A stretch of DNA of 64,000 nt from a virus. The notes under the pieces were generated by a model that made no database searches, had not been told where the DNA came from, and saw only the letters and a program-made list of their open reading frames with translations. Positions 20,701 through 36,296 of this stretch are shown here, piece after piece. The translations under genes were made by a program, and so were the position numbers. Each line of letters opens with the position of its first letter. Positions within the stretch are counted from its first letter, which is position 1. The DNA is taken from IMG/VR virus record IMGVR_UViG_3300027759_000002, positions 32,001-96,000 of that record, one strand, 5' to 3'.

Positions 20701-22011
20701 GGATTGTATTCAAGTAGTTCTTATGCTAATCCATCTTGGATAACAAGTCTTGCAAATACAAAAATTACTGGTACTATTGCAGACAGTCAATTAATTGATG
20801 CTGGTCCAGATGCAAATGCATACACATATGGCGCCGCATCAAAAATTGCTCAAGTTAAAGTTGATGGCAAAGGTAGAGTTACTGCCGTATCGAACGTTAC
20901 TATTTCTATCACCAAATCTCAGGTGTCGGACTTCCCAACATTGGCAAACTCAGCAACGATTGATACTACAAGTGCTGGTAACATCGACAAAGGTACATTG
21001 CCTGACGCTCGATTACCATCAACAGCAGTGTCAGCTGGTTCATATGGTGGTGCCGCTAAAGTTGGAACCTTTACTGTTGATGCAAAAGGTAGACTGACAG
21101 CTGCAGGTGATTCACAAATTTCTATTACAAAATCACAGATATCGGATTTCCCAACTATTACCGATACAACCAACGCAAGCAATATTTCATCCGGAACATT
21201 GGCAGATGCAAGACTACCTACAGGTTTGGCAAAACTAGCCGGAGCAGCATTTACTGGTGAGACTACAGTATCGGGTACAGGTAAGGTTACATTGGCACTT
21301 TCGGGTGATATCACCGCATATAGAACTGGTGGTACAACTGGTGTTCTTTATTTAAATAGTGCCCAAAATAGATATCTTTTTAATGATGGTACGAAATATT
21401 ATTTAAATGGCCAAGGTTTGGTTGTTAATGGTGCAGATGTATTAAATACAAGTGATACTTTTGATATTACAGGAACACGCAATCATAAGTCTGGATCTCC
21501 TACAGGTACAGCTAGTCAAGCGGGTACGTTGGTTGTTTATGGTAATAATGGTAATATAGGTACAAACCACGCCACCATGTCGTTTCATAGACCAGGTTCA
21601 TTTGCGATTAATATGGGACTGGACAATGATAACGTCTTTAGAATTGGTGGATGGTCCGATGGTTTAAATACATATAGAATGACATTAGATACTGTTGGTA
21701 ATGCAGTGTTTAGAAACAACGTTACTGCTTACTCTGATGCAAGATTAAAAACAAATGTCGAAACAATTACAAATGCTTTAGACACTGTATCAAAAATGCG
21801 TGGTGTTACTTATGAAAGAATTGATTCTGGCACAAAAGGTGTTGGTGTTATTGCACAAGAAATGAAAGAAGTATTACCTGAAGTTGTTATGGAAGCCGCA
21901 AGTGATGATGAGTTTATGTCAGTATCTTATGGTAACATTGTTGGTGTTTTGATTGAAGCAATTAAAGAACTTAAAGCAGAAATTGAAGTATTAAAAGGAC
22001 AGATTAAATGA
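17782..22011 (+). CDS. long tail fibre with C-terminal intramolecular chaperone (peptidase S74-like)
   Basis: C-terminal YSDARLKTNVETITNALDTVSKMRGVTY..GVIAQE..VLPEVV..VSYGNIVGVLIEAIKEL. Internal VDAKGR repeats and 22-aa QANSSVNT repeats. Confidence 0.85.
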   Translation: MANTVTTLSYANTFGHWLTATSALIAENNVLAKDNYVKDSGTIYLSEGTLNALQSNGNVIIQKVLSVQGVGSSATIQNDLTVQRQGLFTNTELSLSTSGSANIANVLNVLGSGFGLKVANNARVAGDLYVGGNLDLNILEARQKVNTSTLSVTGTTYTSKLQSNNQIVTDVISANSSIYTSRLQANTSITTTEIQANTIVNAASFSATTGIYGNLLQANSSVNTANASIVHTLYANRVQANSSVNTANASITGTVYTKNLLANSFISSSNIIASNVITTNTLSANIAIYTVDQYSTNTAYANLFYANTVYLQNNIVTVGNTNSTSFFASANITTPTLHSINSFGDYLTANLHIYTPSIDVEGTTLTQFLQANSSMNTSNSSVVNTSWTKNLIANTLITTAAIAVTGKTHTNTLQANTSANTETLSVTQRALIDQVQANTSVNTQILSVSTTAFANRLEANSIVYTPLLNVTGNTFTNRLQSNISVNTATMSVTQKIDANNASVFVNNLQTVGQLSVGGNFVINGTTIYNSNVFTLNAGSNEGLISSIDINRGVTGANASLRWNETNKNFDILNVTNGNYYRIITDQYVSDALDQTAAQAASSTAANTLNTKITTANTFLQGRIDSSDKFANAAFVRANSSYTSQNTTASFANAAFRHANAAYESANNVAPQVAPAFAQANAAFDKANTTVATIKGTTGFVTANVAGITLKSNNGIVIFATNDNGTGNTLSISTSQDLTTTGSPTFAAISLTTPLQVGQGGTGTSSYASLFGLTVTAAAGSGAAGKVLGTDGSGGYSWVTGGTGGGGGTQPGSRISSSRLSYTGDSLTTKFTTPTFSVGTQLRTYINGVRQLESEYNAFTSNSIIQFTSAPVTGDKILVEVDGYAVYEYFANNIVYGPVSGDMSGATIQDAIDNLETRKMPKIGGTFTGRVDGLTMPITTSNTHFATTAFVNNLANAGYTLTSSITGNAGTVTNGLYSSSSYANPSWITSLANTKITGTIADSQLIDAGPDANAYTYGAASKIAQVKVDGKGRVTAVSNVTISITKSQVSDFPTLANSATIDTTSAGNIDKGTLPDARLPSTAVSAGSYGGAAKVGTFTVDAKGRLTAAGDSQISITKSQISDFPTITDTTNASNISSGTLADARLPTGLAKLAGAAFTGETTVSGTGKVTLALSGDITAYRTGGTTGVLYLNSAQNRYLFNDGTKYYLNGQGLVVNGADVLNTSDTFDITGTRNHKSGSPTGTASQAGTLVVYGNNGNIGTNHATMSFHRPGSFAINMGLDNDNVFRIGGWSDGLNTYRMTLDTVGNAVFRNNVTAYSDARLKTNVETITNALDTVSKMRGVTYERIDSGTKGVGVIAQEMKEVLPEVVMEAASDDEFMSVSYGNIVGVLIEAIKELKAEIEVLKGQIK

Positions 22012-23000
22012 CAACAAAGATAACGCCATCAGTACTGGCAAACACAGCAGTCACTGCTGGTACTTATGGTGATGCCACACAAATACCAACAATAGTTACT
22101 GATGCTCAAGGTAGAATTACATCAGCGTCACAACAGGCTGTTGCAATAACTACAAGTCAAGTAACATCTGGTACATTTGTTGATGCTAGATTCATTAATA
22201 CTGGCGTATCTGCAACAGGTTATGGTACAGCAAGTTCTGTTCCAAAATTTAACGTAGATGCAAAAGGCAGAATTACTAGTGTGGTTAACACTGCAATTCA
22301 AATTGCAACTTCACAGATTACTGGTTATCCAACCTTTGTTGCATCAGCAACCACGGATACTACAGTTGCTGATAACATTACATCAGGTACGTTACCTGCG
22401 GCCAGATTACCAACAACAGCAGTAACAATTGGTACATATGGTTCCTCAGCTGGTTCCGCATACTCAAGATTTGTAGTAGATTCTTATGGTAGAATTACAT
22501 CAGCAGCTAACGTTACAATATCAATATCATCTGCACAAGTTACTGGTTTGGCCACATCAGCAACAACAGACACAACAGATGCAGCTAATATAAACGCAGG
22601 TTTTTTACCATCAGCTAGACTAACTATAACAGGTGTAACGGCTGGTTCATATGGGTCACAATCTTTTGTGCCAAGATTCACCGTTGATAACAGAGGTAGA
22701 CTTACTTCAGCAAACAATATCGCAATTTTAATTAATGCATCAGCTGTTGCAGGTTTAGCTTCAGTGGCCACATCAGGTTCTTACTTTGATTTATCAGATA
22801 AACCTTCTATTCCTACCACAATAAATACATTAACCACTGGTTATCCGATTGGTTCAATTTACATGAACGGATTGAACAGTGCTAATCCGAATACATTGTT
22901 TGGTTTTGGTACCTGGGTAGCAGTTACCAACACAGCCTTTGGCACAGCCAATACAACACCAGACATTGATCCATTATATGTTTGGATGCGAACCGAATAA
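22008..23000 (+). CDS. fibre protein with G.YG..VD..GRIT repeats and gp10-C-terminal-like end
   Basis: Four G.YG...VD..GR(I/L)TS repeats. C-terminal YPIGSIYMN..NPNTLFGFGTWV motif. Confidence 0.7.
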   Translation: MTTKITPSVLANTAVTAGTYGDATQIPTIVTDAQGRITSASQQAVAITTSQVTSGTFVDARFINTGVSATGYGTASSVPKFNVDAKGRITSVVNTAIQIATSQITGYPTFVASATTDTTVADNITSGTLPAARLPTTAVTIGTYGSSAGSAYSRFVVDSYGRITSAANVTISISSAQVTGLATSATTDTTDAANINAGFLPSARLTITGVTAGSYGSQSFVPRFTVDNRGRLTSANNIAILINASAVAGLASVATSGSYFDLSDKPSIPTTINTLTTGYPIGSIYMNGLNSANPNTLFGFGTWVAVTNTAFGTANTTPDIDPLYVWMRTE

Positions 23001-23029: not shown

Positions 23030-23371
23030 ATGCCAGCAGGTTATCAAGAATTATTTTTAGAACAAGGTTCAAGCTTCAACACATCAGTAGCATTGGATGA
23101 GGCTGACGGTACACCTTTTCAATTAGTTAATTGCCAAATTAAAGCTGTGATGAAAAAATCTTATTATTCAAGTAACACAACAGCGCAATTTGTTATAACC
23201 ATCAATGATCCAACTGAAGGTATCATGGTTATGTCTTTACCATATGCAAACACAGCAAATATTTCTGCTGGTAGATATGTATATGATGTTGTTATAAAAG
23301 ATTCTTCTAACAATGTTACGAGAGTCTTAGAAGGAATTGTGAACGTGTTACCTCAAGTTACTGTATTTTAA
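23030..23371 (+). CDS. conserved small virion protein (Ig-like beta sandwich, BppU-N-like)
   Basis: ELFLEQGSSF..MKKSYYS..GRYVYDVVI..RVLEGIVNVLPQVT pattern, common before fibre genes of T4-like aquatic phages. Confidence 0.6.
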   Translation: MPAGYQELFLEQGSSFNTSVALDEADGTPFQLVNCQIKAVMKKSYYSSNTTAQFVITINDPTEGIMVMSLPYANTANISAGRYVYDVVIKDSSNNVTRVLEGIVNVLPQVTVF

Positions 23372-23380
23372 AGGAACATC

Positions 23381-23914
23381 ATGCCAACAGTAACAGTTAG
23401 ACAACCAGCAACCGTTAGGGTAAGAATAGAAGGACAAAAATCAAGGGTCAAAACTCTATCTTACGGTACACAAACACTCAGAAGTTTAACAGACTTATCA
23501 TTAACTGGTGCAAACACCGGTGATGTGATAATTTATAACTCAGAGACAAAAACATTTAGTGCCAAAGGCCTTGGTACCGATACACCAATTCATGGTAATT
23601 TAATACCAACAGAGTCAAGAACATTCGACCTTGGTAGCAGAACAAGAAAGTTCCGAAGTCTTTACCTAAGTGGTAACACTATTGACTTGGATGGTACAGT
23701 CATTAAAGCCGAAGCAACAACTGGTGCGCTTTCATTTTCAGCTGCGCCGACAGCAGCAAATCCTAATCCTATTGCGCTTGTTGTATCACCAGTTGGTGGT
23801 CTTACACCAGTACAAACCATTGCTGGTGTAATTCCAGAAGAAGCAATTCAACGAGCAGTGGCAAACTCTATAACTTATTTGGCATTCCAGGGTGTTGATA
23901 TGGGTTTCTTTTGA
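23381..23914 (+). CDS. hypothetical fibre-associated protein
   Basis: LRSLTDL..GDVIIYN and FDLGSRTRKFRSLYLSG motifs. Ends DMGFF. Confidence 0.55.
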   Translation: MPTVTVRQPATVRVRIEGQKSRVKTLSYGTQTLRSLTDLSLTGANTGDVIIYNSETKTFSAKGLGTDTPIHGNLIPTESRTFDLGSRTRKFRSLYLSGNTIDLDGTVIKAEATTGALSFSAAPTAANPNPIALVVSPVGGLTPVQTIAGVIPEEAIQRAVANSITYLAFQGVDMGFF

Positions 23915-23922
23915 GATAAGTT

Positions 23923-24153
23923 ATGGCAGGATCAAATACAACAATTCAAATACTGCGTTCTTACGCAAATACGGCACCAAGTAATTTGGCTGACGGAGAA
24001 TTAGCATTTTCTTTTGTTTCCAACACTCTTTTTATTGGTAGTACCACATTAAATGTAGAAACTCAGTTGTGGAGCAATAATATTGTTAGTATAGGCGGAC
24101 CGGAGTACATTGCTAATGCAATTAGTATAATTGATGCAGGCAATTTTTCATAA
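23923..24153 (+). CDS. small Mtd-N-like (IQILRS..GELAF) protein
   Basis: TIQILRS..PSNLADGELAFS..LFIG. Ends DAGNFS. Confidence 0.6.
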   Translation: MAGSNTTIQILRSYANTAPSNLADGELAFSFVSNTLFIGSTTLNVETQLWSNNIVSIGGPEYIANAISIIDAGNFS

Positions 24154-24156
24154 ATA
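24149..24156 (+). promoter_or_regulatory. T4-type late promoter (CATAAATA)
   Basis: Consensus match overlapping the stop codon, upstream of 24199. Confidence 0.55.
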
Positions 24157-24198
24157 GATATAGGATTTAAATCCAACTAATCAAAAAGGATAATAATA

Positions 24199-26112
24199 AT
24201 GGCCATCGGAAACACCTCAATTCTAATCAAGCGTTCCACCACGTTAGGCACACCAGTAAGCCTACAAGCCGGTGAACTTGGTTATTCATACCTTTCAAAT
24301 ACCATTTTCATTGGTTCACCATCTGGTACAGGTGTTGTTAATGTTGGTGGTCAATACTATACCTCACAGATTGATGCAGCTACCAGTTCAAATACTGTAA
24401 GCACCATAGTTAAACGTGACGCATCTGGTAACGTTTTCTTAGGCCACGCAAACGTCAGAAGTATTAGTTTCTCTGATGGCGGCGTATTAAGTACTGGCGC
24501 TTTCTCAGGTAACGCAAACTCTGCAACACAATTTCAAACAGACAGATTTATTAATGTTACTGGTGGTGACATTACTGCTTCTGCACAGTTGTTTAATGGT
24601 ACTGCAAATGCAACATTAAGTGCATCACTTAACACTATTGCTGGTCTAACCGCTGGTGTTTATGGTGGTACATCTAACATACCAGTTGTTACTGTTGCTG
24701 CAAATGGTCGTATCATGTCCATTGCTAATACAAGTATCGCCACAGCATTGAGTATTGCTGGTGATACTGGTACAGATACAGTACACCTTGCAAATAACAC
24801 ATTGACCTTCATTGGTGGTGAAGGCATCACATCAGTAGTAACAGACAATGCAGTTTCTTTTAGTGTAGACACTACAGTTGTTCGTTCAAATACTGCATCA
24901 ATGAATCAAACGATTGATGGTAATATTACCATCAGCGGTAATCTTGCTGTTTTAGGTGATGTTACAAAATATGATGTAACAACATTGTCAACTGAAGATG
25001 CATTGATTGTTCTTGCGGCAAATAATGCAGGCGATGCAGTTGATATTGGTTTTGTTGGTTCATACAATGATGGTACGGCTCGTTCTGCTGGTTTGATTCG
25101 TCATGCTGGTGATGGTGCATATTACCTATTCGACAATTATACAGGTGATCCATCAAGTAACGTAATCAACGTTTCATCAGGAACCTTCCGCCAAGCAAAC
25201 TTGAAATCAAACTTAGTTGCTGCATGGGCAAACACAACAGTATTACAAGTTGGTACACTAACAGTTGCTGGTGCAACATCACTAAAATCATTAACATTAA
25301 CTGATGACCTAACAGTATCTAATGGTGGTACTGGCGCAAGTTCATTCACTGCTGGTTCTATCCTTGTTGGTGATGGTTCAAACTCATTAAAACTACTTGC
25401 TAATAGTACATATACCGAAACAGGTACTGGCGCACAAAATAACACCATTACTTCTGTAACTGTTGATGCATATGGTAGAACAACCGCTGCAACATTCAGT
25501 CAGATTTCTGGTCTAACAGTTGGCCAAGGTGGTACAGGACAAAGTACATTCAACGCAGGTCAGGTTGTTCTTGGTAACGGCACAGGTGGTCTAGTATCAC
25601 AAGCAAACGTTTCTGTTGTAAACGTAAACGTTGCAACATCAAACACAGTTAACAACATTACAACAGACGTATATGGTCGTGTAACAGGATTCACACAACA
25701 AGAAATTTCTGGTCTATCAGTTCCACAAGGCGGTACAGGTGCATCGACATTCACCGCTGGTAGAATGTTGGTTGGTAATGGCAACGGTGCAATTCAAGCA
25801 ATCGCTAACGTAACGTATGCATTGACTGGTACACTAGGTGCTGCTAAAACAATCACATCATTGACTGTTGATGCATACGGCCGTGTAAGTGCTGCGACTG
25901 CTGCTGATATTTCTGGTCTGACTGTAACACAAGGCGGTACTGGTGCTTCTACATTTACATCAAAGGGTATCGTATACGGCGATGGTTCAAATGCACTAGC
26001 TGTTACTGCTGCTGCAGGTTCATCCGACCAAACATGGTCTAATCAAATTCTTACAGTAACCAATGCAGGTGTTCCTATTTGGTCATCCGCTTTGGATGGA
26101 GGTCAATTCTAA
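24199..26112 (+). CDS. tail fibre protein with Mtd-N-like start and GGTG repeats
   Basis: ILIKRS..LQAGELGYS..IFIG N-terminus, repeated V..GGTGASTF..G.(V/L)L.G.G and VDAYGR units. Ends LDGGQF. Confidence 0.75.
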   Translation: MAIGNTSILIKRSTTLGTPVSLQAGELGYSYLSNTIFIGSPSGTGVVNVGGQYYTSQIDAATSSNTVSTIVKRDASGNVFLGHANVRSISFSDGGVLSTGAFSGNANSATQFQTDRFINVTGGDITASAQLFNGTANATLSASLNTIAGLTAGVYGGTSNIPVVTVAANGRIMSIANTSIATALSIAGDTGTDTVHLANNTLTFIGGEGITSVVTDNAVSFSVDTTVVRSNTASMNQTIDGNITISGNLAVLGDVTKYDVTTLSTEDALIVLAANNAGDAVDIGFVGSYNDGTARSAGLIRHAGDGAYYLFDNYTGDPSSNVINVSSGTFRQANLKSNLVAAWANTTVLQVGTLTVAGATSLKSLTLTDDLTVSNGGTGASSFTAGSILVGDGSNSLKLLANSTYTETGTGAQNNTITSVTVDAYGRTTAATFSQISGLTVGQGGTGQSTFNAGQVVLGNGTGGLVSQANVSVVNVNVATSNTVNNITTDVYGRVTGFTQQEISGLSVPQGGTGASTFTAGRMLVGNGNGAIQAIANVTYALTGTLGAAKTITSLTVDAYGRVSAATAADISGLTVTQGGTGASTFTSKGIVYGDGSNALAVTAAAGSSDQTWSNQILTVTNAGVPIWSSALDGGQF

Positions 26113-26158
26113 GCTGACTATATAATGTAATAGATTTTTTTTATGATAGGAGTTTGAT

Positions 26159-26884
26159 ATGGCAAATGAAAAGTATTTAAATTATTATATTGAAACATTA
26201 ACGGCAACAATGACAGATTGTGTTGTCCGAAATGTTTCAATGCAAGCGAATCAAAAAATTACTGATGAGGTTGTAAAAGAACAGAGTGAAAAAATTGAAG
26301 CATTGGCAAAATCCAATAATGAATTACAAACATTAATTGAACAATTGGAACAAACCAATGCATCAAATGAAAATAATGTTATACAAGATTTAAAAAACAA
26401 GTTAGCCGAAACCGAAAAACTTGTTTCTAAACAAAGTACCGACATTAATGAATTGACCAATAAACATCGTGTTGAACTTGAAGAATTAAACACAAAGTTT
26501 AGAGACTATGAAAGTGTTAAAAATCAAGCAACACATGTTGAAACGTTTAAAGGTGAATTGATTCGAGCCAGAGAAGAAACTAATAGAGTTCGTACAGAAC
26601 TTGAGAATAGAATCAACTCTATTAATTCCGAAAATACTGGAAAGATTGATGGCATTAATCAAGAAAATGAAAAGAATGTTAAACTGTTGATTCAGAAACA
26701 TGAAACTGAAAAAAGTAATTTAGATGATACGATTAAATTATTAACTGAAAAGATTGAATACTTACAACTACCTCCTGCCAAGCGAAAAAAAATTGAAGAA
26801 CAGCTGAATAAAGAAGTGGTACCAACTGCTATAACAAGTTTAGTTGGTGCTGATGGCGAACTCAAGGATGGCGGATCGTTTTAA
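26159..26884 (+). CDS. charged coiled-coil protein
   Basis: E/K/N-rich heptads over most of its length. Strong AGGAG RBS. Ends DGGSF. Confidence 0.65.
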   Translation: MANEKYLNYYIETLTATMTDCVVRNVSMQANQKITDEVVKEQSEKIEALAKSNNELQTLIEQLEQTNASNENNVIQDLKNKLAETEKLVSKQSTDINELTNKHRVELEELNTKFRDYESVKNQATHVETFKGELIRAREETNRVRTELENRINSINSENTGKIDGINQENEKNVKLLIQKHETEKSNLDDTIKLLTEKIEYLQLPPAKRKKIEEQLNKEVVPTAITSLVGADGELKDGGSF

Positions 26885-26888
26885 GTAA

Positions 26889-27368
26889 ATGTCAAACACA
26901 GCAATACAGTTAAAAAAATCAGGCGTAACAGGAAACACACCATCAGGTCTTGCATTTGGTGAGGTCGCTCTTAACTACGCCGATGGAAAACTGTTTTATA
27001 AAAACAGTCTTGGTGGAACTTCATACATCTCCAACCAATTTTCGTTTGACACAATCAACTCAAACAGCTCCCTAATATTTGCGGGAAGTGGTTCGGACAC
27101 CTTGTCTTTCATTGCTGGTAATAATGTTACCATCAGCACAAATACAACCACAAAAACAATCACAATCAATGCATCGGTATCAGGTGGAAATGACCCTGGT
27201 CCTGCGTTTGACCGTGCCAACGCTGCATATGCAGCACAAAATACAACTGCATCGTTTGCTAATGCGGCGTTCACTCATGCTAATGCAGCTTATACCAAAG
27301 CTAATACAGGAACAACAGCACTAGACACTAACTCAGACATTGTTGCTTTCACTATCGCCTTTAGTTGA
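26889..27368 (+). CDS. Mtd-N-like short fibre protein
   Basis: AIQLKKS..PSGLAFGEVALNYADGKLFYK, short AN stalk, hydrophobic C-terminus VAFTIAFS. Confidence 0.65.
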   Translation: MSNTAIQLKKSGVTGNTPSGLAFGEVALNYADGKLFYKNSLGGTSYISNQFSFDTINSNSSLIFAGSGSDTLSFIAGNNVTISTNTTTKTITINASVSGGNDPGPAFDRANAAYAAQNTTASFANAAFTHANAAYTKANTGTTALDTNSDIVAFTIAFS

Positions 27369-27370
27369 TG

Positions 27371-27378
27371 AATAAATA
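27371..27378 (+). promoter_or_regulatory. T4-type late promoter (AATAAATA)
   Basis: Intergenic consensus match upstream of 27397. Confidence 0.5.
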
Positions 27379-27396
27379 AAGGATAAGGAAATTTAA

Positions 27397-27723
27397 ATGG
27401 CAAATACTTTTAAAAATCAACTACAAGCAGCAGTCGGAACATCACCTACAGCAATCTATACAGCTGGTGCCAATGTATCAACGACAGTCATTGGCATGAC
27501 TATAGCAAACATACTAAACACATCAATAACCGCAAACGTCATTTTAACTTCTGGTGGGTCGGACTATTATATGGTTAAGATGGCACCAATTGATCCAGGT
27601 AATTCTTTAATTACTATTGGTGGTGAACAAAAATTAGTAATGAGAGCCAATGATATACTAAAAGTCTCAACAAGTAATGCTTCAGCAGCTGATGTTATTG
27701 TGAGTCTATTGGAAATAACATAA
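27397..27723 (+). CDS. small beta-sandwich adaptor-like protein (MANTFKN class)
   Basis: 108 aa. IYT..TTVIGMTIAN..DV.VS.LEIT pattern shared with four other ~110-aa paralogues in this window. Confidence 0.65.
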   Translation: MANTFKNQLQAAVGTSPTAIYTAGANVSTTVIGMTIANILNTSITANVILTSGGSDYYMVKMAPIDPGNSLITIGGEQKLVMRANDILKVSTSNASAADVIVSLLEIT

Positions 27724-27724
27724 C

Positions 27725-30700
27725 ATGGAATTTACTTACATTGGCAATCAAGATAAGAAGGATGTAAGGTTAGCTGGTTCATTTGCTAATGGTGCATTTG
27801 TAACTGCTAACTCAGCAGCCTCTTTTGCCAATGCGGCTTTTGCTAGGGCCAACGCAGCCTATGCACAAGCAAATACTGGTGGAAACTTTACTGCATCACC
27901 AGTATCAGTTTATTCCGATGCGTTCACCGCTAATGGTGCAACATCAACATTTAATTTAAGTACAACACCATCAAGTGAAAACTATATAATTGCGGTAGTC
28001 GATGGTATTACTCAATTAAGAAGTACATATACTGTTACAGGTAATGTAGTTTACTTTGATACCACATTTGAAAATGGTGCCAATGTTGAGATAACAACTA
28101 TCACTGGCGGTGGTGCCGTAGATCCATATGCATCAAACACTGCCAATGCAGCGTATGCAACTGCTAATGCGGCCTTTTTGCAGGCCAACAATAGTTCCAC
28201 CGATACATGGGTAAGAACACAAGCTAACACGGCATACGATAAGGCCAACTCGGCAGCTTCGTTTGCCAATGGTTCTTTTGTAGTTGCCAACTCAACATCT
28301 ATATTTGCTAATGCATCTTTCGATAGAGCCAATGCTGCTTATGCACAGGCAAATAATTCTACTGATACGTGGGTAAGAAGTCAGGCTAATAATGCATTTG
28401 ATACGGCTAATTCATCAGCATCGTTTGCCAATGCGTCCTTTGTAACCGCTAATGCATCATATCTTTCACAAAACACTACTGCAATCTTTTCTAATGCAGC
28501 CTTTGACCGTGCTAATGCGGCCTACGCACAGGCTAATAATTCAACAGATACTTGGGTAAGAGGTCAGGCTAATAATTCATACGATAAAGCCAATAGTGCT
28601 GGCAGTTTTGCTAATGGTGCATTTGTAACTGCTAACTCAGCAGCAAGTTTTGCTAACGGAGCATTCACAACATCCAATACAGCTGATAGTAAAGCAACAA
28701 GTGCTGGTTCATTTGCTAATGGTGCATTTGATAGAGCAAACTCCAGTTATACTACGGCAAATTCAGGTTCTAGTTTTGCTAATTCATCTTTTGTAACAGC
28801 CAATGCGGCAGCATCATTTGCTAATGGTGCATTTACACAAGCCAATACCGGTGTAACAATATCTAGTTTGGCTTTTAACCATGCTAATGCAGCCTATGCA
28901 CAAGCAAATACATCTGGTGGTGCGGACACTTTTGCGAGAGCACAAGCAAATGCGGCTTTTAGTACAGCCAATTTAGCATACAGTACAATTATTACAGCCA
29001 GTAATACAGCGGCATTGTATTATATCACCAGAAATTTTATTGGTGATGGTAACACAAACAACTTTTCAATTTCATCCAATACATCTGCGAATAGTATTCT
29101 TGTTTTTGATAATGGTATTACACAGAATCCAATAACGGACTATAGTGTAACAGGAAACACAATCATCTTTGTGGATACTCCAGCAAATGGAACAATAATT
29201 CAAGTACGTGAATTATTAAGTAATGTTCCTGTTGTTACTGATAATTCCAATTCAGCATTTAACAGAGCCAATTCATCATATTCAACGGCCAATGCAGCCT
29301 TTAATGCAGCCAATAACTCTACTGATACTTGGGTAAGAGGTCAGGCTAATAATGCATTTGCTGCAGCCAATTCATCCGGTAATTTTGCAAATGCATCTTT
29401 CATAACCTCCAATTCAGCCGCTGTATTTGCTAATGGTGCCTTCGATAAGGCAAATGCAGCCTTTAATGCGGCCAATAATTCCACCGATACTTGGGTCAGA
29501 ACACAAGCAAACACAGCATACACGGCAGCTAACTCAGCGGCCAGTTTTGCTAACGGTGCTTTTGTACAGGCAAACAATGCAGGTTCATTTGCTAATGGTG
29601 CTTTTGTTGGCGCCAATGCAGCTGCTTCATTCGCTAATGGTGCATTTGACCGTGCGAATTCTAGTTACGGAGTTGCAAATACTGGTTCTAGTTTTGCCAA
29701 TGGTGCATTTGTTGTTGCCAACTCAGCAGCCAGTTTTGCAAATGCATCCTTTATAGTTGCAAACTCAGCAGCATCATTTGCTAATGGTGCTTTTGTAACT
29801 GCTAATGCTTCTTACACATCACAAAATATAACTGCTGGATTTGCTAATGCATCTTATACAACAGCAAATGCAGTTTATGTATCTCAAAATATAACGGCCG
29901 GATTGGCCAATGCATCTTTTGTAACAGCTAATGCATCCTATACAGCACAAAATACTACTGCATCATTTGCTAATGGTGCTTTTGTAACTGCTAATGCATC
30001 ATATGTTGCACAGAATATCACGGCAGGTTTTGCTAATGCTGCATTTGTAACAGCTAATGCTTCTTATGCATCTCAGAATACTACAGCATCATTCGCTAAC
30101 GGTGCCTTCATAACTGCTAATGCATCTTACACATCACAAAACACCACGGCATCATTTGCTAACAGTGCCTTTGTAACTGCTAACGCAGCCTTTAATGCAG
30201 CCAACACCGGCAGTGCAGATGCATATGCAAGAAGTACAGCCAATGCAGCTTTCGTTACCGCAAACTTAGCATACAGTACAATTATTACAGCCAGTAATAC
30301 AGCTTCAGTTTATTATATAACCAGAAATTTTACTGGTGATGGTAACACGAATACATTTTCAATTTCATCTAACACAACTGCAAATAGTATACTTGTTTTT
30401 GATAATGGTATTACACAAAATCCACTAACAGATTATAGTGTAACAGGAAATACTATTACTTTTGTGGATACTCCAGCAAATGGAACAATAATTCAAGTAC
30501 GTGAATTATTAAGTAATGTTCCTGTTGTTACAGACAACTCCAATTCTGCTTTTGTTAGAGCAAACTCCGCATATGCAACAGCAAATGCTGCCTTCTTACA
30601 AGCCAATAATTCTACTGATAGTTGGGTAAGAACTCAAGCTAATAATGCATATGATAAGGCCAATAGTGCTGGCAGTTTTGCTAATGGTGCCTTCATAACT

Positions 30701-31978
30701 GCTAATGCTGCCTTTAATGCGGCCAATAACTCAACAGATACTTGGGTAAGAACACAAGCAAACGCAGCATACAATGCAGCCAATTCTGGTGCATCATTTG
30801 CTAATGGTGCCTTCATAACAGCCAATGCAGCATATGCTTGGGGCAATCATGCTTCTGCTGGATATGCAACAACAACTTATGTTGGTAATGCAATTGCAAA
30901 TCTTGTAAACTCTGCGCCAACAACGTTAGATACATTAAATGAATTGGCAACTGCGTTAGGTAACGATGCCAACTTTAGCACAACAATTGCAACATCAATA
31001 GGTGTAACCAACTCATTTGCAAACGGTGCATTTCTAAGAGCCAATGCGTCTTATATTGCACAAAATACCACAGCAACATTTGCTAATGCAGCTTTTATAA
31101 CTGCTAATGCATCATATACAGCACAAAATACAACTGCTGGATTTGCTAACGCATCTTACATAACAGCCAATTCTGGTGCATTATTTGCTAACAGTGCCTT
31201 TGTAACCGCTAATGCTTCTTATGCCTCTCAGAATACCACAGCATCATTTGCTAATGGTGCTTTCGATAAAGCAAACTCAGCTGCATCATTCGCTAACGGT
31301 GCCTTTGTAACTGCTAACGCAGCCTTCAATGCAGCTAACAATGCAACGGATCCGTGGGTTAGAAATCAAGCCAACAACGCATACAATACAGCTAACGCAG
31401 CTTTCATAGCAGCCAATACTGCCGGTGGTGCAGACACTTGGGCAAGAGCGCAAGCAAATGCGGCTTACAATAAAGCAAACACCAGTTCTACTGCAACATT
31501 AACAGGTTTTGTTGATGTGTTTACTGGCGATGGTTCAAATTCAGCATTCACTTTGTCAACAACACCAGACAGTGAAAACATAATCTTTGTTTCTGTACAA
31601 GGTGTGATGCAACCTAAAACTTCTTATAGTTTATCAGGAAACATTTTAACATTTGATTCTGTTCCACCAAACACAGCATACATTGAAGTCACAACATTAT
31701 CAGGTACAAATATAAGTTCTAGTAGTTTAATATATAGAACATATACAGGCAACAATACTGCAACAAACTTTACAGTAACCTCTGGTGTAAATGTAAACAA
31801 TTTACTTGTTGCAGAAAACGGTATTTTACAGAGACCAACTACAGACTACACAGTATCTGGTGCAAACGTAGTATTTGCAACTGCGCCTGCCACTGGTGTT
31901 GATATTCAAGTGCGTGAATTAGCAGTTACAGTATCTTCAGCTGAAACATTAAGCCCATTTTTATTAATGGGTGGATAA
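27725..31978 (+). CDS. very long AN-heptad coiled-coil fibre with five 59-aa knob domains
   Basis: Dozens of ANSAASFANGAF units, five F(T/I)G.G...G..Q...Y.V.G..I.F knob domains, APTTLDTLNELATALGNDANF fibre motif. Ends SPFLLMGG. Confidence 0.8.
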   Translation: MEFTYIGNQDKKDVRLAGSFANGAFVTANSAASFANAAFARANAAYAQANTGGNFTASPVSVYSDAFTANGATSTFNLSTTPSSENYIIAVVDGITQLRSTYTVTGNVVYFDTTFENGANVEITTITGGGAVDPYASNTANAAYATANAAFLQANNSSTDTWVRTQANTAYDKANSAASFANGSFVVANSTSIFANASFDRANAAYAQANNSTDTWVRSQANNAFDTANSSASFANASFVTANASYLSQNTTAIFSNAAFDRANAAYAQANNSTDTWVRGQANNSYDKANSAGSFANGAFVTANSAASFANGAFTTSNTADSKATSAGSFANGAFDRANSSYTTANSGSSFANSSFVTANAAASFANGAFTQANTGVTISSLAFNHANAAYAQANTSGGADTFARAQANAAFSTANLAYSTIITASNTAALYYITRNFIGDGNTNNFSISSNTSANSILVFDNGITQNPITDYSVTGNTIIFVDTPANGTIIQVRELLSNVPVVTDNSNSAFNRANSSYSTANAAFNAANNSTDTWVRGQANNAFAAANSSGNFANASFITSNSAAVFANGAFDKANAAFNAANNSTDTWVRTQANTAYTAANSAASFANGAFVQANNAGSFANGAFVGANAAASFANGAFDRANSSYGVANTGSSFANGAFVVANSAASFANASFIVANSAASFANGAFVTANASYTSQNITAGFANASYTTANAVYVSQNITAGLANASFVTANASYTAQNTTASFANGAFVTANASYVAQNITAGFANAAFVTANASYASQNTTASFANGAFITANASYTSQNTTASFANSAFVTANAAFNAANTGSADAYARSTANAAFVTANLAYSTIITASNTASVYYITRNFTGDGNTNTFSISSNTTANSILVFDNGITQNPLTDYSVTGNTITFVDTPANGTIIQVRELLSNVPVVTDNSNSAFVRANSAYATANAAFLQANNSTDSWVRTQANNAYDKANSAGSFANGAFITANAAFNAANNSTDTWVRTQANAAYNAANSGASFANGAFITANAAYAWGNHASAGYATTTYVGNAIANLVNSAPTTLDTLNELATALGNDANFSTTIATSIGVTNSFANGAFLRANASYIAQNTTATFANAAFITANASYTAQNTTAGFANASYITANSGALFANSAFVTANASYASQNTTASFANGAFDKANSAASFANGAFVTANAAFNAANNATDPWVRNQANNAYNTANAAFIAANTAGGADTWARAQANAAYNKANTSSTATLTGFVDVFTGDGSNSAFTLSTTPDSENIIFVSVQGVMQPKTSYSLSGNILTFDSVPPNTAYIEVTTLSGTNISSSSLIYRTYTGNNTATNFTVTSGVNVNNLLVAENGILQRPTTDYTVSGANVVFATAPATGVDIQVRELAVTVSSAETLSPFLLMGG

Positions 31979-31987
31979 GGAAAGAAC

Positions 31988-32317
31988 ATGGCAATCACAT
32001 ACAAAGTTTTAGGACAATCAAACCCGCTGGCAACAACAGCAACAACACTTTATACGGTGCCAGCAGCAACAAGTGCAATAGCTTCAACTATTACTATTTG
32101 TAATCAATCGGCTAGTAATGATTTTTATAGAATTGCAATACGACCAGCAGGTGCAACATTGGATCCAAAACACTATATTGCATACAATGGTGCTATTCCA
32201 TCTTACGATAGTATCAGTTTAACAATTGGTATCACACTAGCTAGTACTGATATAGTTACAGTATATGCAGGTACTGCAAATCTAAGTTTCAACTTGTTTG
32301 GTTCGGAGATTAGTTAA
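31988..32317 (+). CDS. small adaptor-like protein (KVLGQSNP class)
   Basis: 109 aa. YKVLGQSNP..TTLYTVPA..YRIAIRP.G..HYIAY..FNLFGSEIS. Paralogue of 35074 and 47842. Confidence 0.7.
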   Translation: MAITYKVLGQSNPLATTATTLYTVPAATSAIASTITICNQSASNDFYRIAIRPAGATLDPKHYIAYNGAIPSYDSISLTIGITLASTDIVTVYAGTANLSFNLFGSEIS

Positions 32318-33282
32318 TGGTGGTAAAAACGCACAGCACAGAAAAACTTAGTGCTAAGGTTTTTAATAGCACAAGTATATCTAATCCATCAATACCAACA
32401 GCAAACGCAATTGAATATCTTGTCGTTGCTGGTGGTGGTGGCGGTGGTGCTTGGCTTGGTGGTGGCGGTGGTGCTGGTGGTTTTAAAACTGCAGCTGGTT
32501 TTGCAGTATCTCCTGGTGTATCATTAACAGTAACAATTGGTGCAGGTGGTGCTGGTGCAGCTGCATCAACAAACCTTGCAGGTGCGAACGGCACAAATTC
32601 ATCATTCTCAACAATTACATCTTTAGGCGGTGGTTATGGAGGATCGGGCATTGCAGGTAAAGGCGCATCAGGTGGTTCTGGCGGTGGAGGTTCTGATTCA
32701 GGAAGTGCTAGCGTAGCATCAGGTGGTGGTGCGGGCACCGCAGGACAAGGCAACAACGGTGGCGGTGGACTTGATGGATCAGGCGGCGCAGGCGGAGGTG
32801 GCGGTGGTGCTGGCGCTGCAGGTTCTAATGCTATAGCAGCATCTTTCCCTTCTGGTGGAAACGGCGGAGCTGGATTATCTTCATCAATAACCGGAACATC
32901 ATTGTATTATGCAGGCGGTGGTGGTGGCGGTTGTTATAATACTGGTGTAAAAGGTGGTGACGGCGGCGCAGGCGGTGGCGGTGGCGGTAGTACGTGGTCA
33001 GGCACAACTGCCGGCACTGGCGGTAGTAATGGTGGCGGCAACGGTAATGTAGGTGCTGTTGCAGGCGCAGGTGGTATTAATTCTGGCGGTGGCGGCGGAG
33101 GTTCTAATGGTACTGCAGGATATACTTCAAGTGGTGCAGGTACAGGTGGTTCAGGCATAGTTGTTATTCGTTATGCAGTTGATTATAAAGCAGCAACAGC
33201 AATTACCGGTTCACCAACAGTTACAGTTGCCGATGGTTACAGAGTTTATAAATGGACCAGTTCAGGTTCTATTACATTCTAA
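32317..33282 (+). CDS. glycine-rich domain protein (putative adhesin)
   Basis: EYLVVAGGGGGG..GGGGAGG..GGSGIVVIRY with many GGxG runs. Confidence 0.7.
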   Translation: MVVKTHSTEKLSAKVFNSTSISNPSIPTANAIEYLVVAGGGGGGAWLGGGGGAGGFKTAAGFAVSPGVSLTVTIGAGGAGAAASTNLAGANGTNSSFSTITSLGGGYGGSGIAGKGASGGSGGGGSDSGSASVASGGGAGTAGQGNNGGGGLDGSGGAGGGGGGAGAAGSNAIAASFPSGGNGGAGLSSSITGTSLYYAGGGGGGCYNTGVKGGDGGAGGGGGGSTWSGTTAGTGGSNGGGNGNVGAVAGAGGINSGGGGGGSNGTAGYTSSGAGTGGSGIVVIRYAVDYKAATAITGSPTVTVADGYRVYKWTSSGSITF

Positions 33283-33291
33283 GAAAATAAT

Positions 33292-34527
33292 ATGACACTC
33301 AAAATTACAACAGATAACATAGCAACAGCAGCACTAAATTCTTTAGGTGGTGGTATTAAGATATCATCTGTAACTTTTACAGGTAGTGCTACTGCTGCAA
33401 GGATAACCGGTGGTGAAACTGTAACAGTTAATGGTTCTGGTTTTAAAGCTGCTTCAATCGTTTATGTAAACGAAACTAGTTGTAACACCACCTATGTAAG
33501 TGGTGCAAGTTTAACATTTATAAGTCCAGCCAAAACTGCTGGTACATATAATGTCTATGTTTATAATGATGATGGTTCTTCTGGAATTAAACCTGCTGGT
33601 ATATCCTTTAGTGATGTGCCTATATGGTCAACTGCAAGTGGTTCTTTAGGTTCTTCATTTGTCGATGCAAGCACATCAATTACAATAAGTGCAAACAGTG
33701 ATACCACAATTGCTTACAGTGTTACATCAGGCAGTTTGCCAACAGGATTAAGTTTAAATTCAAGTACGGGTGTAATCTCTGGTACTACTACAGGTTCAGC
33801 TGCTACTTATAATTTTACAATTACAGCTACTGATGCTGAGTTACAAACAACTAGTAGAAGTTTTAGTATAAATGCTGTTACTGGTGTTGAATTAAAAACG
33901 CCAGCTGGCAAAACAAAACTACTAGGATTACAATTTAATGCTAGTGGTTTAACAGTAACAGGTTCTTACACAGTTACAACAGTAGGAACATTATCCTATC
34001 AATCAACTGGTGGTGTTAGTAATTCTGGTTTTGCAACTGGATGGGGAACAGGTACCTACTTAACAATAGACCAATTAACTGACAACTCATCAACAAGAAG
34101 TAAAACTTATGTTGCTTGGTATAAAGGCACGCAAAGTAATACTGGAGGTTCTTATTCACCTAGTGTTGGAATCTTTGCTAACACCGGAAATGCCACTTAT
34201 TGGGGTTTAGGTATGAGTAACGGAAAAATCACAGTAGCAAATGGAACAGATAATCAAGGAACAACTAGTGTTAACACAGGCAGCTGGGTTATGTTAGCAT
34301 GGGTTGTTAAATCCACTCTAAGAGTAGATTCTTATGTCAATGGAGTTAAAGAAACTTCTGCTAGTAATATTTTAGTTAATAGTAATTACATGGGAACAAA
34401 TTATATAGGAACACAATACCCTTATCCAGGTGTAGCATCTCCTACATCACTAGATGCAATTCAGATTATAGATGGTGAATTGACTGATTCAGAAATTCTT
34501 TCCATATATACCGGCACAGCGATTTAA
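33292..34527 (+). CDS. IPT/TIG + putative Ig (He_PIG-like) + ConA/LamG-like domain protein
   Basis: GGETVTVNGSGF..SLTFISPAKTAGTYNVYVYN (IPT). SGSLPTGLSLNSSTGVISGT..YNFTITATD (He_PIG). WVMLAWV..YVNG (LamG). Confidence 0.7.
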   Translation: MTLKITTDNIATAALNSLGGGIKISSVTFTGSATAARITGGETVTVNGSGFKAASIVYVNETSCNTTYVSGASLTFISPAKTAGTYNVYVYNDDGSSGIKPAGISFSDVPIWSTASGSLGSSFVDASTSITISANSDTTIAYSVTSGSLPTGLSLNSSTGVISGTTTGSAATYNFTITATDAELQTTSRSFSINAVTGVELKTPAGKTKLLGLQFNASGLTVTGSYTVTTVGTLSYQSTGGVSNSGFATGWGTGTYLTIDQLTDNSSTRSKTYVAWYKGTQSNTGGSYSPSVGIFANTGNATYWGLGMSNGKITVANGTDNQGTTSVNTGSWVMLAWVVKSTLRVDSYVNGVKETSASNILVNSNYMGTNYIGTQYPYPGVASPTSLDAIQIIDGELTDSEILSIYTGTAI

Positions 34528-34538
34528 AGGATTAAAAA

Positions 34539-34778
34539 ATGGCAACAAAAATCAACAGAAGAAACATAGACAACCAAACATTAATTGATTTAGGATATAC
34601 AAGTTCAGACACATTTACTCAGGTTAAATTTCCTTTGGGTGATTACGGTTCAGTAGCACAAGAAATTTTTGGTGGATTAGGTCTAGAACAGTATGGTAGA
34701 ATTTGGGATAATAAAACAACAATATCAGTTTTTTATCCAGATAGTTTAATCCCACTCGATGCGGGTTATTTAACATAA
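34539..34778 (+). CDS. small hypothetical linker protein
   Basis: 79 aa. MATKINRRNI start. Ends LDAGYLT. Confidence 0.55.
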   Translation: MATKINRRNIDNQTLIDLGYTSSDTFTQVKFPLGDYGSVAQEIFGGLGLEQYGRIWDNKTTISVFYPDSLIPLDAGYLT

Positions 34779-34781
34779 ATA
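34774..34781 (+). promoter_or_regulatory. T4-type late promoter (CATAAATA)
   Basis: Consensus match upstream of 34801. Confidence 0.55.
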
Positions 34782-34800
34782 CTTATATTAAGGAATATAA

Positions 34801-35070
34801 ATGGCTACACAACTACAATTTAGGCGAGGAACTACTGCACAGACCATAATCTTTACCGGAGCAACCGGAGAAGTTACTGTTGACACAACTAAAGGTGTGG
34901 TAGTCGTGCATGATGGTACAACTGTAGGTGGTACACCATCAGTCACCGAAGCATTTGCAAGGTCTTCCGCAAATACAGCAAATTCTTCATACGCAACCGC
35001 TAATGTTGCATTAGTAAACGCTAATGTTGCATTAACATATACAAACACTTTTTTATTAATGGGAGCTTAA
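34801..35070 (+). CDS. major tropism determinant N-terminal (Mtd-N)-like domain protein
   Basis: QLQFRRGTTAQ..FTGATGEVTVDT.K..VVVHDG.T.GG is the Mtd_N motif. Ends TFLLMGA. Confidence 0.75.
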   Translation: MATQLQFRRGTTAQTIIFTGATGEVTVDTTKGVVVVHDGTTVGGTPSVTEAFARSSANTANSSYATANVALVNANVALTYTNTFLLMGA

Positions 35071-35073
35071 CAA

Positions 35074-35403
35074 ATGCCATCGGTCTTAAAAATTTTAGGT
35101 CAATCTAATCCAGCACCAAATACTGCAACAACTCTTTACACAGTGCCAGCAGCAAACAGCACAGTAATTTCTACAATTTCAATTGCAAATTTGTCAGCAA
35201 ATACCACAGGTTTTAGAATTGCTTGTCGTCCAGCTGGTGCATCATTGGCCAATTCACAATACATTTCATACGACACAGTTTTAGGTGCAAGTGATACTGT
35301 TGCTTTGACATTAGGTTTAACACTAGCAGCAACTGATGTTCTTACTGTTTATGCTAACACAGGCAACGTTACCTTTAGTGCGTTTGGTTCGGAGAATTAC
35401 TAA
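35074..35403 (+). CDS. small adaptor-like protein (KILGQSNP class)
   Basis: 109 aa. Paralogue of 31988 and 47842. Confidence 0.7.
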   Translation: MPSVLKILGQSNPAPNTATTLYTVPAANSTVISTISIANLSANTTGFRIACRPAGASLANSQYISYDTVLGASDTVALTLGLTLAATDVLTVYANTGNVTFSAFGSENY

Positions 35404-36296
35404 TGGCAATTAAAAAATCTTCCTTAAGTGGATTAGCTTTTAATAGGACTATATCTTACCAGCAACCAGTCGCTTCAGCTGGCGGTGGTGGCGGTGCTGT
35501 CACAGTTGGACCTACGGCCACAGGTGGTACAGTTACTACATTTATAGATGCAAATAATGCAACTTACAAAGTACATACATTCACATCAAGTGGTTCATTT
35601 GTAGTAAGTTCTTTAGGTGCATCCAATAATAGTATTGAATTGTTAGTTGTGGGTGCTGGTAGTGGTGGCCATACGAGTACAACCGGTGGTGCTGGTGGCC
35701 AAGTAAAATATTATGGTGCAGAAAATTCAAATCTTTTTACTAGAGATATAGCTGTTGAGGGTTCAGCACTAGCAACTTTAGCAGCAGCAACATACACAGT
35801 AACAATTGGTGGTGGCCAAGCAGCTGGGACTGTTGGTACTGCAACATCATCTTCTTTTATCGGAACAGGCATAAGTGTAACATCGACTGGTGGATCAAAT
35901 CCACAAAGCGGACAAACCAGTTGGATATATTCTATCAGTGGCAATGGTTTCCAAACAGGTACATCAGGTAGCAATTATTATTCACACGGTGGTTCTGGTG
36001 CAGCAGGCCGAGGAAGTCCCCTTGGTGGTGATGTAGGTGGTGGAGGTGGACCTCCACAATATTTTATGATAAAAGGAAACACAGTTACATTTGTTGGTGG
36101 CGGCGGCGGTATTGGAATTAATAGTGGATATGGACAAAACTATGAAAGATACAGAGGAATTGGTGGCCAAGGTGCCGGTAGAGCAGATGAAACTGGTGTA
36201 GCTAACATGGGTGGCGGTGGCGGCGCAGGCTGGAATGGCAGCGGTGCAAAAGCTGGTGGTTCAGGTATTGTAATTGTTAAATATAGAATTTCTTAA
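35403..36296 (+). CDS. glycine-rich domain protein (putative adhesin)
   Basis: YKVHTFTSSGSF..ELLVVGAG..GGSGIVIVKY. Confidence 0.7.
   Translation: MAIKKSSLSGLAFNRTISYQQPVASAGGGGGAVTVGPTATGGTVTTFIDANNATYKVHTFTSSGSFVVSSLGASNNSIELLVVGAGSGGHTSTTGGAGGQVKYYGAENSNLFTRDIAVEGSALATLAAATYTVTIGGGQAAGTVGTATSSSFIGTGISVTSTGGSNPQSGQTSWIYSISGNGFQTGTSGSNYYSHGGSGAAGRGSPLGGDVGGGGGPPQYFMIKGNTVTFVGGGGGIGINSGYGQNYERYRGIGGQGAGRADETGVANMGGGGGAGWNGSGAKAGGSGIVIVKYRIS

Follow-up and report, generated by a model that had tools for sequence, protein, structure and literature searches.

Separately encoded fibre pieces are probably chained head to tail in the phage from which the window analysed here derives, a 64,000-nt stretch (positions 32,001 to 96,000) of the IMG/VR record IMGVR_UViG_3300027759_000002, and the chaining would depend on a joint between the C-terminus of one piece and the N-terminus of the next. 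We give this reading a probability of about 0.7. The upstream half of the joint, referred to here as the plug or tag, is a C-terminal D-x-G-x-hydrophobic motif followed by zero or one residue, and the downstream half, the socket, is an N-terminal domain of about 40 residues that resembles the T4 gp37 N-terminus or the Mtd_N domain. In the proposed mechanism, the window encodes segmented tail or baseplate fibres built from trimeric, separately translated pieces that join non-covalently, the plug of each upstream piece entering the socket of the downstream one in a reusable two-part joint. The socket would share its ancestry with the start of T4 gp37 and, at a greater distance, with the N-terminal beta-prism domain of BPP-1 Mtd. 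Three joints with aromatic plugs and K/R-K/R-S sockets would lie in series (A to B, B to C, and C and/or D to E), and a fourth, 7 kb downstream, would pair an aliphatic plug with an R-R-G socket, connecting a protein of 79 amino acids (aa) to one of 89 aa. Judged from the sequences, the window probably holds a variant, with several links, of the joint known between T4 gp36 and gp37, reused to chain separately encoded pieces, and the fibres are probably clipped end to end in roughly the order of their genes. The model further supposes that the proteins are trimeric here, that gene order corresponds to assembly order, and that the plug peptide itself may touch the socket.

All the genes concerned lie on the plus strand. 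Gene A (23381-23914, 177 aa) would be the first link, with a socket-less N-terminus and a C-terminal DMGFF. Gene B (23923-24153, 76 aa) begins with a socket of the K/R-K/R-S type (..TIQILRS), continues with a short variable spacer and ends DAGNFS. The fibre shaft gene C (24199-26112, 637 aa) also begins with a socket (..ILIKRS) and ends DGGQF. Gene D (26159-26884, 241 aa) encodes a coiled coil with a conserved non-socket N-terminus and ends DGGSF, and gene E (26889-27368, 159 aa) starts with a socket (..AIQLKKS) that leads into an Ala/Asn-repeat stalk and a tagless, hydrophobic tail. Further downstream, the 79-aa protein (34539-34778), which has no Pfam or PHROG family, ends DAGYLT, an aliphatic plug plus one residue, and the 89-aa protein (34801-35070) starts with an R-R-G-type Mtd_N socket (..QLQFRRG), followed by a short Ala/Asn stalk and a hydrophobic C-terminal tail. 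The open reading frames (ORFs), coordinates and termini in a first-pass annotation of the window were all correct. The record is complete (179,754 bp, with terminal repeats) and the window is part of it. Over the whole 179.8-kb genome, plug-type ends are found in 6 of 239 ORFs, against 0.63 expected by composition; five of the six sit in the window fibre genes, and each of the four socket genes lies directly behind one of them, as that annotation had reported. The sixth ORF (genome 129636-130814, equivalent to 97636-98814 in window numbering and thus outside the window) encodes 392 aa with a hydrophobic N-terminus, ends RDAGKF and lies outside any fibre cluster; it is probably a chance match.

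The same pair of ends is found in T4, where gp36 ends DFGYY and gp37, 8 nt downstream, begins with a K/R-K/R-S ... P ... G-E-L-A domain. The D-F-G-x-F/Y end is present in 32/32 T4-like relatives, and none of T4 gp6-gp13, wac, gp34 and gp35 has a plug-type end. Trimeric gp36 is reviewed as binding the N-terminal region of gp37 (PMC3004832), with the C-terminal end of gp36 contacting the N-terminal end of gp37 (PMC9603124). Thus, the motif pair stands at a biochemically established head-to-tail joint. As in T4, an upstream D-x-G-x-aromatic end is followed in the window by a gene with the same socket, the genes being adjacent and in proximal-to-distal order, and the T4 case is likewise a non-covalent joint between separate fibre proteins, in the distal half of the long tail fibre. 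However, T4 uses the joint once, and this phage shows three of them in a row and a fourth of the other flavour. In the window, the upstream proteins also share only their last five residues with gp36 and are not its homologues: T4 gp36 matches Pfam PF03903 (Phage_T4_gp36) at E=1e-52, and genes A, B and D and the 79-aa protein have no match to that family. What genes A, B, C and D do have is the gp36-type pentapeptide D-x-G-x-F, immediately upstream of the next piece (with a trailing S in B), and in gene B the link is cut down to socket and plug. The first-pass annotation had proposed that such ends let separate gene products polymerise end to end in gene order. The motif pair does mark a real fibre joint in T4, so that this interpretation is partly supported and right in kind, as a joint of the gp36-gp37 type, but strict gene order is uncertain at C/D/E.

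The relation of the sockets to Mtd_N differs between the two parts of the window. The 89-aa protein matches Pfam PF18454 (Mtd_N) with 49.8 bits (E=3.3e-13), above the cut-off of 26.3 bits; it is the sole Pfam Mtd_N match in the genome, and it also aligns with residues 1-44 of BPP-1 Mtd (E=6e-11). Genes B, C and E stay below the PF18454 cut-off; their 50-aa N-termini match no Pfam family at E<=10, Mtd_N included, and the whole proteins have no Mtd_N match at E<=1. From the start codon on, they do align in register with the N-termini of T4-like gp37. When 30 K/R-K/R-S-type N-termini from many phages, including T4-like gp37, are aligned, P, G and E do not vary and S, L and A hardly do, and comparison of this alignment with 14 Pfam-type Mtd_N sequences (14/14 of which pass the Mtd_N cut-off) by hhalign gives a probability of 90.8% (E=1.2e-6), in register from residue 1. 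Mtd_N is also the best sub-threshold Pfam match for 7/30 of the K/R-K/R-S-type N-termini (best E=0.012). All four genes had been labelled as starting with Mtd-N-like domains; the label holds in full for 34801-35070, and for B, C and E, which are linked to the family by profile-profile comparison only, it is a fair one for what appears to be remote homology, not for family membership. An AlphaFold2 monomer model of gene B, made with its 37 orthologues, has four strands and a predicted local distance difference test (pLDDT) score of 79.8, which is a weak test for a monomer taken from an intertwined trimer. As a side observation, a 790-aa ORF at locus L278 (L278:347-2719) has a socket-like ..LAEGELAIN.. 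about 75 residues before its C-terminus; this internal element suggests that the socket module is not always N-terminal.

The arrangement recurs widely. In IMG/VR, 79 relatives of gene C (40-99% identity) keep the module and both ends, in the order 113-aa protein, A, B (sometimes missing), C, D and E; where B is missing, C lies directly behind A. Beyond its socket, gene E is very variable among relatives (97-1121 aa), and in several of them it carries an aliphatic tag at its end and is followed by a true Mtd_N gene. The 79-aa/89-aa pair is present in 7 close relatives. The four window sockets proved too diverse for their alignment to seed locus searches. Extra scans that started from the 89-aa protein, BPP-1 Mtd and T4 gp37 added 240 loci, for a total of about 320 viral loci. 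Plugs are found in 192/244 distinct C-termini upstream of sockets (79%) and in 55/900 other ORFs of the same loci (6%; Fisher p=5e-116), so that enrichment upstream of sockets, the check suggested in the first-pass annotation, is strongly positive. The 55 other plug ORFs all have DGG.F/Y or DLG.L tails like those of gene C and of the podovirus X proteins described below. With sockets clustered at 60% identity, most members have a plug upstream in 20/31 clusters (binomial p=2e-17 at the 6% background), and in a regular-expression table of gene pairs from the first ~160 loci a plug lies ahead of 264/267 socket genes. No paper stating the sequence rule was found in the literature searched, the coverage of which was incomplete.

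The pairing spans myoviruses (T4-likes, P-HM1 and the Pakpunavirus DC31), the siphovirus S-CBS2, marine T7-like podoviruses and BPP-1. The last 60 aa of gene C match Prochlorococcus phages P-HM1 and MED4-213, and the arrangement in P-HM1 is the same. DC31, P-HM1 and S-CBS2 are cultured phages: Limnohabitans phage DC31 has a protein ending ..ESGQY, then a socket protein ending IDGGTY, and then another socket protein; in the cyanosiphovirus S-CBS2, gp050, gp051 and gp052 lie in series. Marine T7-like podovirus contigs have three-piece chains: proteins X and Y, both with a D-L-G-x-L/F end, precede an Mtd_N protein. In the contigs at loci L092-L163 (for example L092:258-3283), X ends LDLGAL and Y, of 56-236 aa, ends FDLGSL. 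Y has a conserved N-terminus containing GGLGxDA, which looks like a second, non-Mtd_N acceptor for the plug. The longest chain among the loci examined is at L227:78-4362, where plugs and sockets, both flavours among them, alternate along seven consecutive genes; the coiled-coil gene that lies between the second and the fourth has no plug. When the 50-aa Mtd_N socket was used as a tblastn query against cultured phages, no match reached E<=1e-3, the query probably being too short for the size of the database. A scan of bacterial genomes with the Mtd_N alignment found only 6 loci, and in a sample of 401 genomes of one class Mtd_N was present in 6.

The plug is under strong purifying selection. 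Among distinct, C-terminus-anchored sequences of the tag-bearing members, the D, G and F columns are invariant (the tag being present in 39/43 members of family A, 37/37 of B, 39/39 of C and 40/41 of D), and in A, B and D the columns ahead of the tag each show about 2-3 bits of variation. In gene B, only the two ends, socket and plug, are invariant over 37 orthologues and the middle is rich in insertions and deletions, so B is in effect a minimal link protein, apparently reduced to the bare link. The codons for Asp, Gly and Phe of the tag vary synonymously in families A, B and C, and selection therefore acts at the protein level, not on a ribosome-binding site. In gene D, the second Gly codon is fixed (GGA in 35/35 distinct sequences).

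Plugs and sockets come in two flavours: aromatic plug ends are found before K/R-K/R-S sockets, and aliphatic ends before true Mtd_N (R-R-G) sockets. Among 221 distinct pairs, the last residue upstream is aromatic in 145/145 pairs with S/T-type sockets and aliphatic in 65/74 pairs with G-type (true Mtd_N) sockets. The residue after Asp is small (G, A or S) for the S/T type, except that T4-likes have F, and bulky (L, Y, C or W) for the G type. This rule is kept in 9/9 genomes with both socket types, this phage included, and suggests specificity between cognate plugs and sockets. It also corrects the tag as first described. D-x-G-x-[FY] had been taken as the partner of Mtd_N-type domains, and it precedes S/T-type sockets in 147/173 pairs but genuine Pfam Mtd_N in only 9/105 distinct pairs; the real Mtd_N tag is D-x-G-x-[LIVM], and the general motif is present in 75/105. 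DAGYLT, which had been listed under D-x-G-x-[FY], does not fit that pattern in register (its Y falls on the x, and L takes the hydrophobic place), but it fits as the aliphatic flavour found with true Mtd_N partners. The two flavours may prevent cross-wiring of the two fibres of this phage. Tentatively, and with the odds somewhat against so broad a statement, a wiring code can be proposed in which small-after-Asp/aromatic plugs go with K/R-K/R-S sockets and bulky-after-Asp/aliphatic plugs with R-R-G, at least two orthogonal flavours directing piece-to-piece clipping within one virion, in a system that is widely shared. If so, the multi-segment fibre architecture of myo-, sipho- and podoviruses would be readable from the genome, and many 60-120-aa 'hypothetical' genes of fibre clusters would be link proteins.

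The true Mtd_N joint of the window can be set beside that of BPP-1, whose fibre gene bbp9 lies directly upstream of mtd and ends DLGGIA. Mtd is located at the fibre ends (PMC2408619), and its beta-prism is the presumed attachment site (PMC10743442). The likeness is that 34801-35070 is a true Mtd_N protein and that Bbp9, like the 79-aa protein, ends in D-x-G-x-aliphatic plus one residue. However, Mtd is a terminal adhesin of the C-type-lectin class whose diversity is generated by a retroelement, whereas here Mtd_N heads an 89-aa stalk that leads on to further appendage genes, and the three other window sockets are under the Pfam threshold. Anchor-branch fibres of the T7/KP34 type and the chain-like fibres of podophage A1002 (PMC13730344) resemble the proposed chain in that separate fibre or spike proteins assemble via dedicated terminal modules, but these docking modules are different ones and the result is lateral branching or bundling. 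In A1002, fibre dimers dock along a rope protein (PMC13730344); the window joint would be linear, consisting of a terminal peptide and an N-terminal cap.

Several observations weigh against the chaining of fibre pieces by this joint. Searches of PDB with gp36, the gp37 N-terminus and both socket profiles returned only free Mtd and no structure of a joint, and in a 2026 preprint gp34-gp35-gp36 and the distal rod were fitted only with low-resolution predicted models. A Foldseek search of PDB with the gene B monomer gave no match at E<=0.001, neither to the beta-prism fold of Mtd (1YU0) nor to any other, although this too is a weak test. Most of the loci are phylogenetically related, and the counts given above therefore overstate independence. 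About a quarter of Mtd_N genes have no upstream tag: a family of ~880-aa Mtd_N proteins lies behind genes with an unrelated acidic/hydrophobic end, a 56-aa socket family lacks a plug-bearing neighbour, the prophage matches L324 and L326/L327 are exceptions to the plug rule (among readable prophage matches, one has a plug and three have none, too few for a separate statistic), and tandem Mtd_N paralogues succeed one another without plugs. At L217:1801-3973 and L242:1087-3235, three such paralogues of 226-248 aa each end EIYGFV; they look like alternative tips for one site, not chain links. With respect to the flavours, L and F interchange before near-identical podovirus sockets, and the split may reflect a single old divergence. 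Conversely, plugs also lie ahead of non-socket N-termini, namely those of the coiled-coil gene D and podovirus Y, and the tag is thus not a ligand of Mtd_N-type domains only, as had been proposed. The pairing of plug and socket is frequent, not obligatory. Finally, the window holds four aromatic plugs against three matching sockets, and the wiring of C, D and E is uncertain for this reason. No paper stating the sequence rule was found in the literature searched, the coverage of which was incomplete.

Gene D could either connect C to E or serve as an accessory or hinge where C and E meet. In the second arrangement, wiring differs from gene order: C would plug into the E socket, and the coiled coil of D, instead of being a linear link, would act there as a hinge, knee or chaperone (compare T4 gp35). 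This arrangement stands only a little short of even odds. The surplus aromatic plug points this way, as does DC31, where the gene for a C-like plug protein lies next to an E-like socket gene downstream and no coiled coil intervenes. Moreover, in P-HM1, L280, L219, L227 and L282 the coiled-coil protein in the D position has no D-x-G-x plug; the upstream gene in these five keeps its plug (relaxed to NGG/SGG in L280 and L219), and the E socket is kept where the locus shows it. DC31 and the plug-less D-position proteins favour the view that C joins to E and that D is a hinge or accessory. Against it, the D tag is as invariant as the others within the clade, D ends 4 nt before E, and the strongly conserved N-terminus of D could be a second kind of acceptor for C.

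A more thoroughgoing alternative is that plug and socket are two independent hallmarks, the motif being a cap or a chaperone/assembly signal of non-terminal trimeric segments and the N-domain a common trimerisation starter, their adjacency arising from the clustering of fibre genes and any joint being made via larger surfaces and not the peptide. This would accommodate the plugs ahead of socket-less genes (C before D, and podovirus X before Y), the sockets without an upstream plug, and the looseness of the flavour rule at the last residue. However, clustering alone predicts that sockets would often be on the first fibre gene, which does not agree with the 264 of 267 found behind a plug. Nor would it be expected that gene B retains just its two ends over 37 orthologues, that every internal piece is plugged and terminal receptor-binding pieces are plug-less, or that T4 biochemistry puts precisely these two ends in contact (PMC9603124). 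Independent hallmarks are therefore considered unlikely, and a joint that chains the pieces is preferred.

It is very improbable that the pieces are fragments of one long fibre gene, produced by read-through, frameshifting or decay. Genes B and C do share a frame, with 45 nt and two in-frame TAA codons (24151-24153 and 24178-24180) between them, but the A/B, D/E and 79-aa/89-aa pairs lie in different frames, every piece starts at an ATG of its own, and the 79 relatives retain the arrangement down to 40% identity. No natural plug-socket fusion is seen in the ~320 loci, the candidate at L278 being an internal socket-like element, and T4 gp36 and gp37 are separate proteins. B/C is the only junction at which read-through could occur, and there is no sign of it. 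A nucleotide artefact, in which the Gly-Gly codons are conserved as the ribosome-binding site of the next gene, is scarcely credible: the fixed GGA of gene D and its stop 4 nt before the start of E would fit, but the synonymous variation in A, B and C largely refutes it, the spacers are too long elsewhere (45 nt from B to C, 22 nt between the 79-aa and 89-aa genes), and the Asp and terminal hydrophobic residue that define the motif are left unexplained.

Fibre clusters of uncultured phages are rich in unannotated small genes, which the joint signature would identify as links, making the segment order readable. One homologous domain and one short partner motif would also connect the T4 gp36-gp37 junction with the attachment of Mtd in BPP-1, pinpoint exact candidate residues at a junction that is still without an atomic structure, and provide natural module boundaries for the study of fibre-piece exchange among phages.

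The source phage is assigned, on its gene content and relatives, to freshwater T4-like myoviruses with late genes all on the plus strand. This assignment is based on a gp10 C-terminal domain in 22008-23000 and on baseplate and tail PHROG matches, together with relatives in metagenomes of lake and marine origin and remote matches to phages of Prochlorococcus, Pelagibacter and Limnohabitans; megablast of the region against cultured phages gave no match. Just upstream of gene A in all relatives is a 113-aa protein (23030-23371, plus strand) that matches phrog_1084 and phrog_3304 ('L-shaped tail fiber protein assembly') with E=1e-17 to 1e-21. Its synteny is conserved, with a homologue in the equivalent place in Limnohabitans phage DC31, and it is a possible anchor of the chain.

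Another kind of arrangement is seen behind the stalks. In the stalk proteins 27725-31978 and 34801-35070, the C-terminus is a short hydrophobic tail, FLLMGG/A, and the stretch behind each of them (31988-33282 and 35074-36296) holds a beta-rich protein of about 109 aa and then a Gly-rich protein. The hydrophobic end of gene E is likewise followed by a 108-aa protein (27397-27723). The hydrophobic tail and the beta-rich protein appear to form a second kind of junction, in which case the 89-aa Mtd_N protein would bridge both types of joint. The hydrophobic-tail arrangement is also found at locus L285, behind a 70-aa socket protein.

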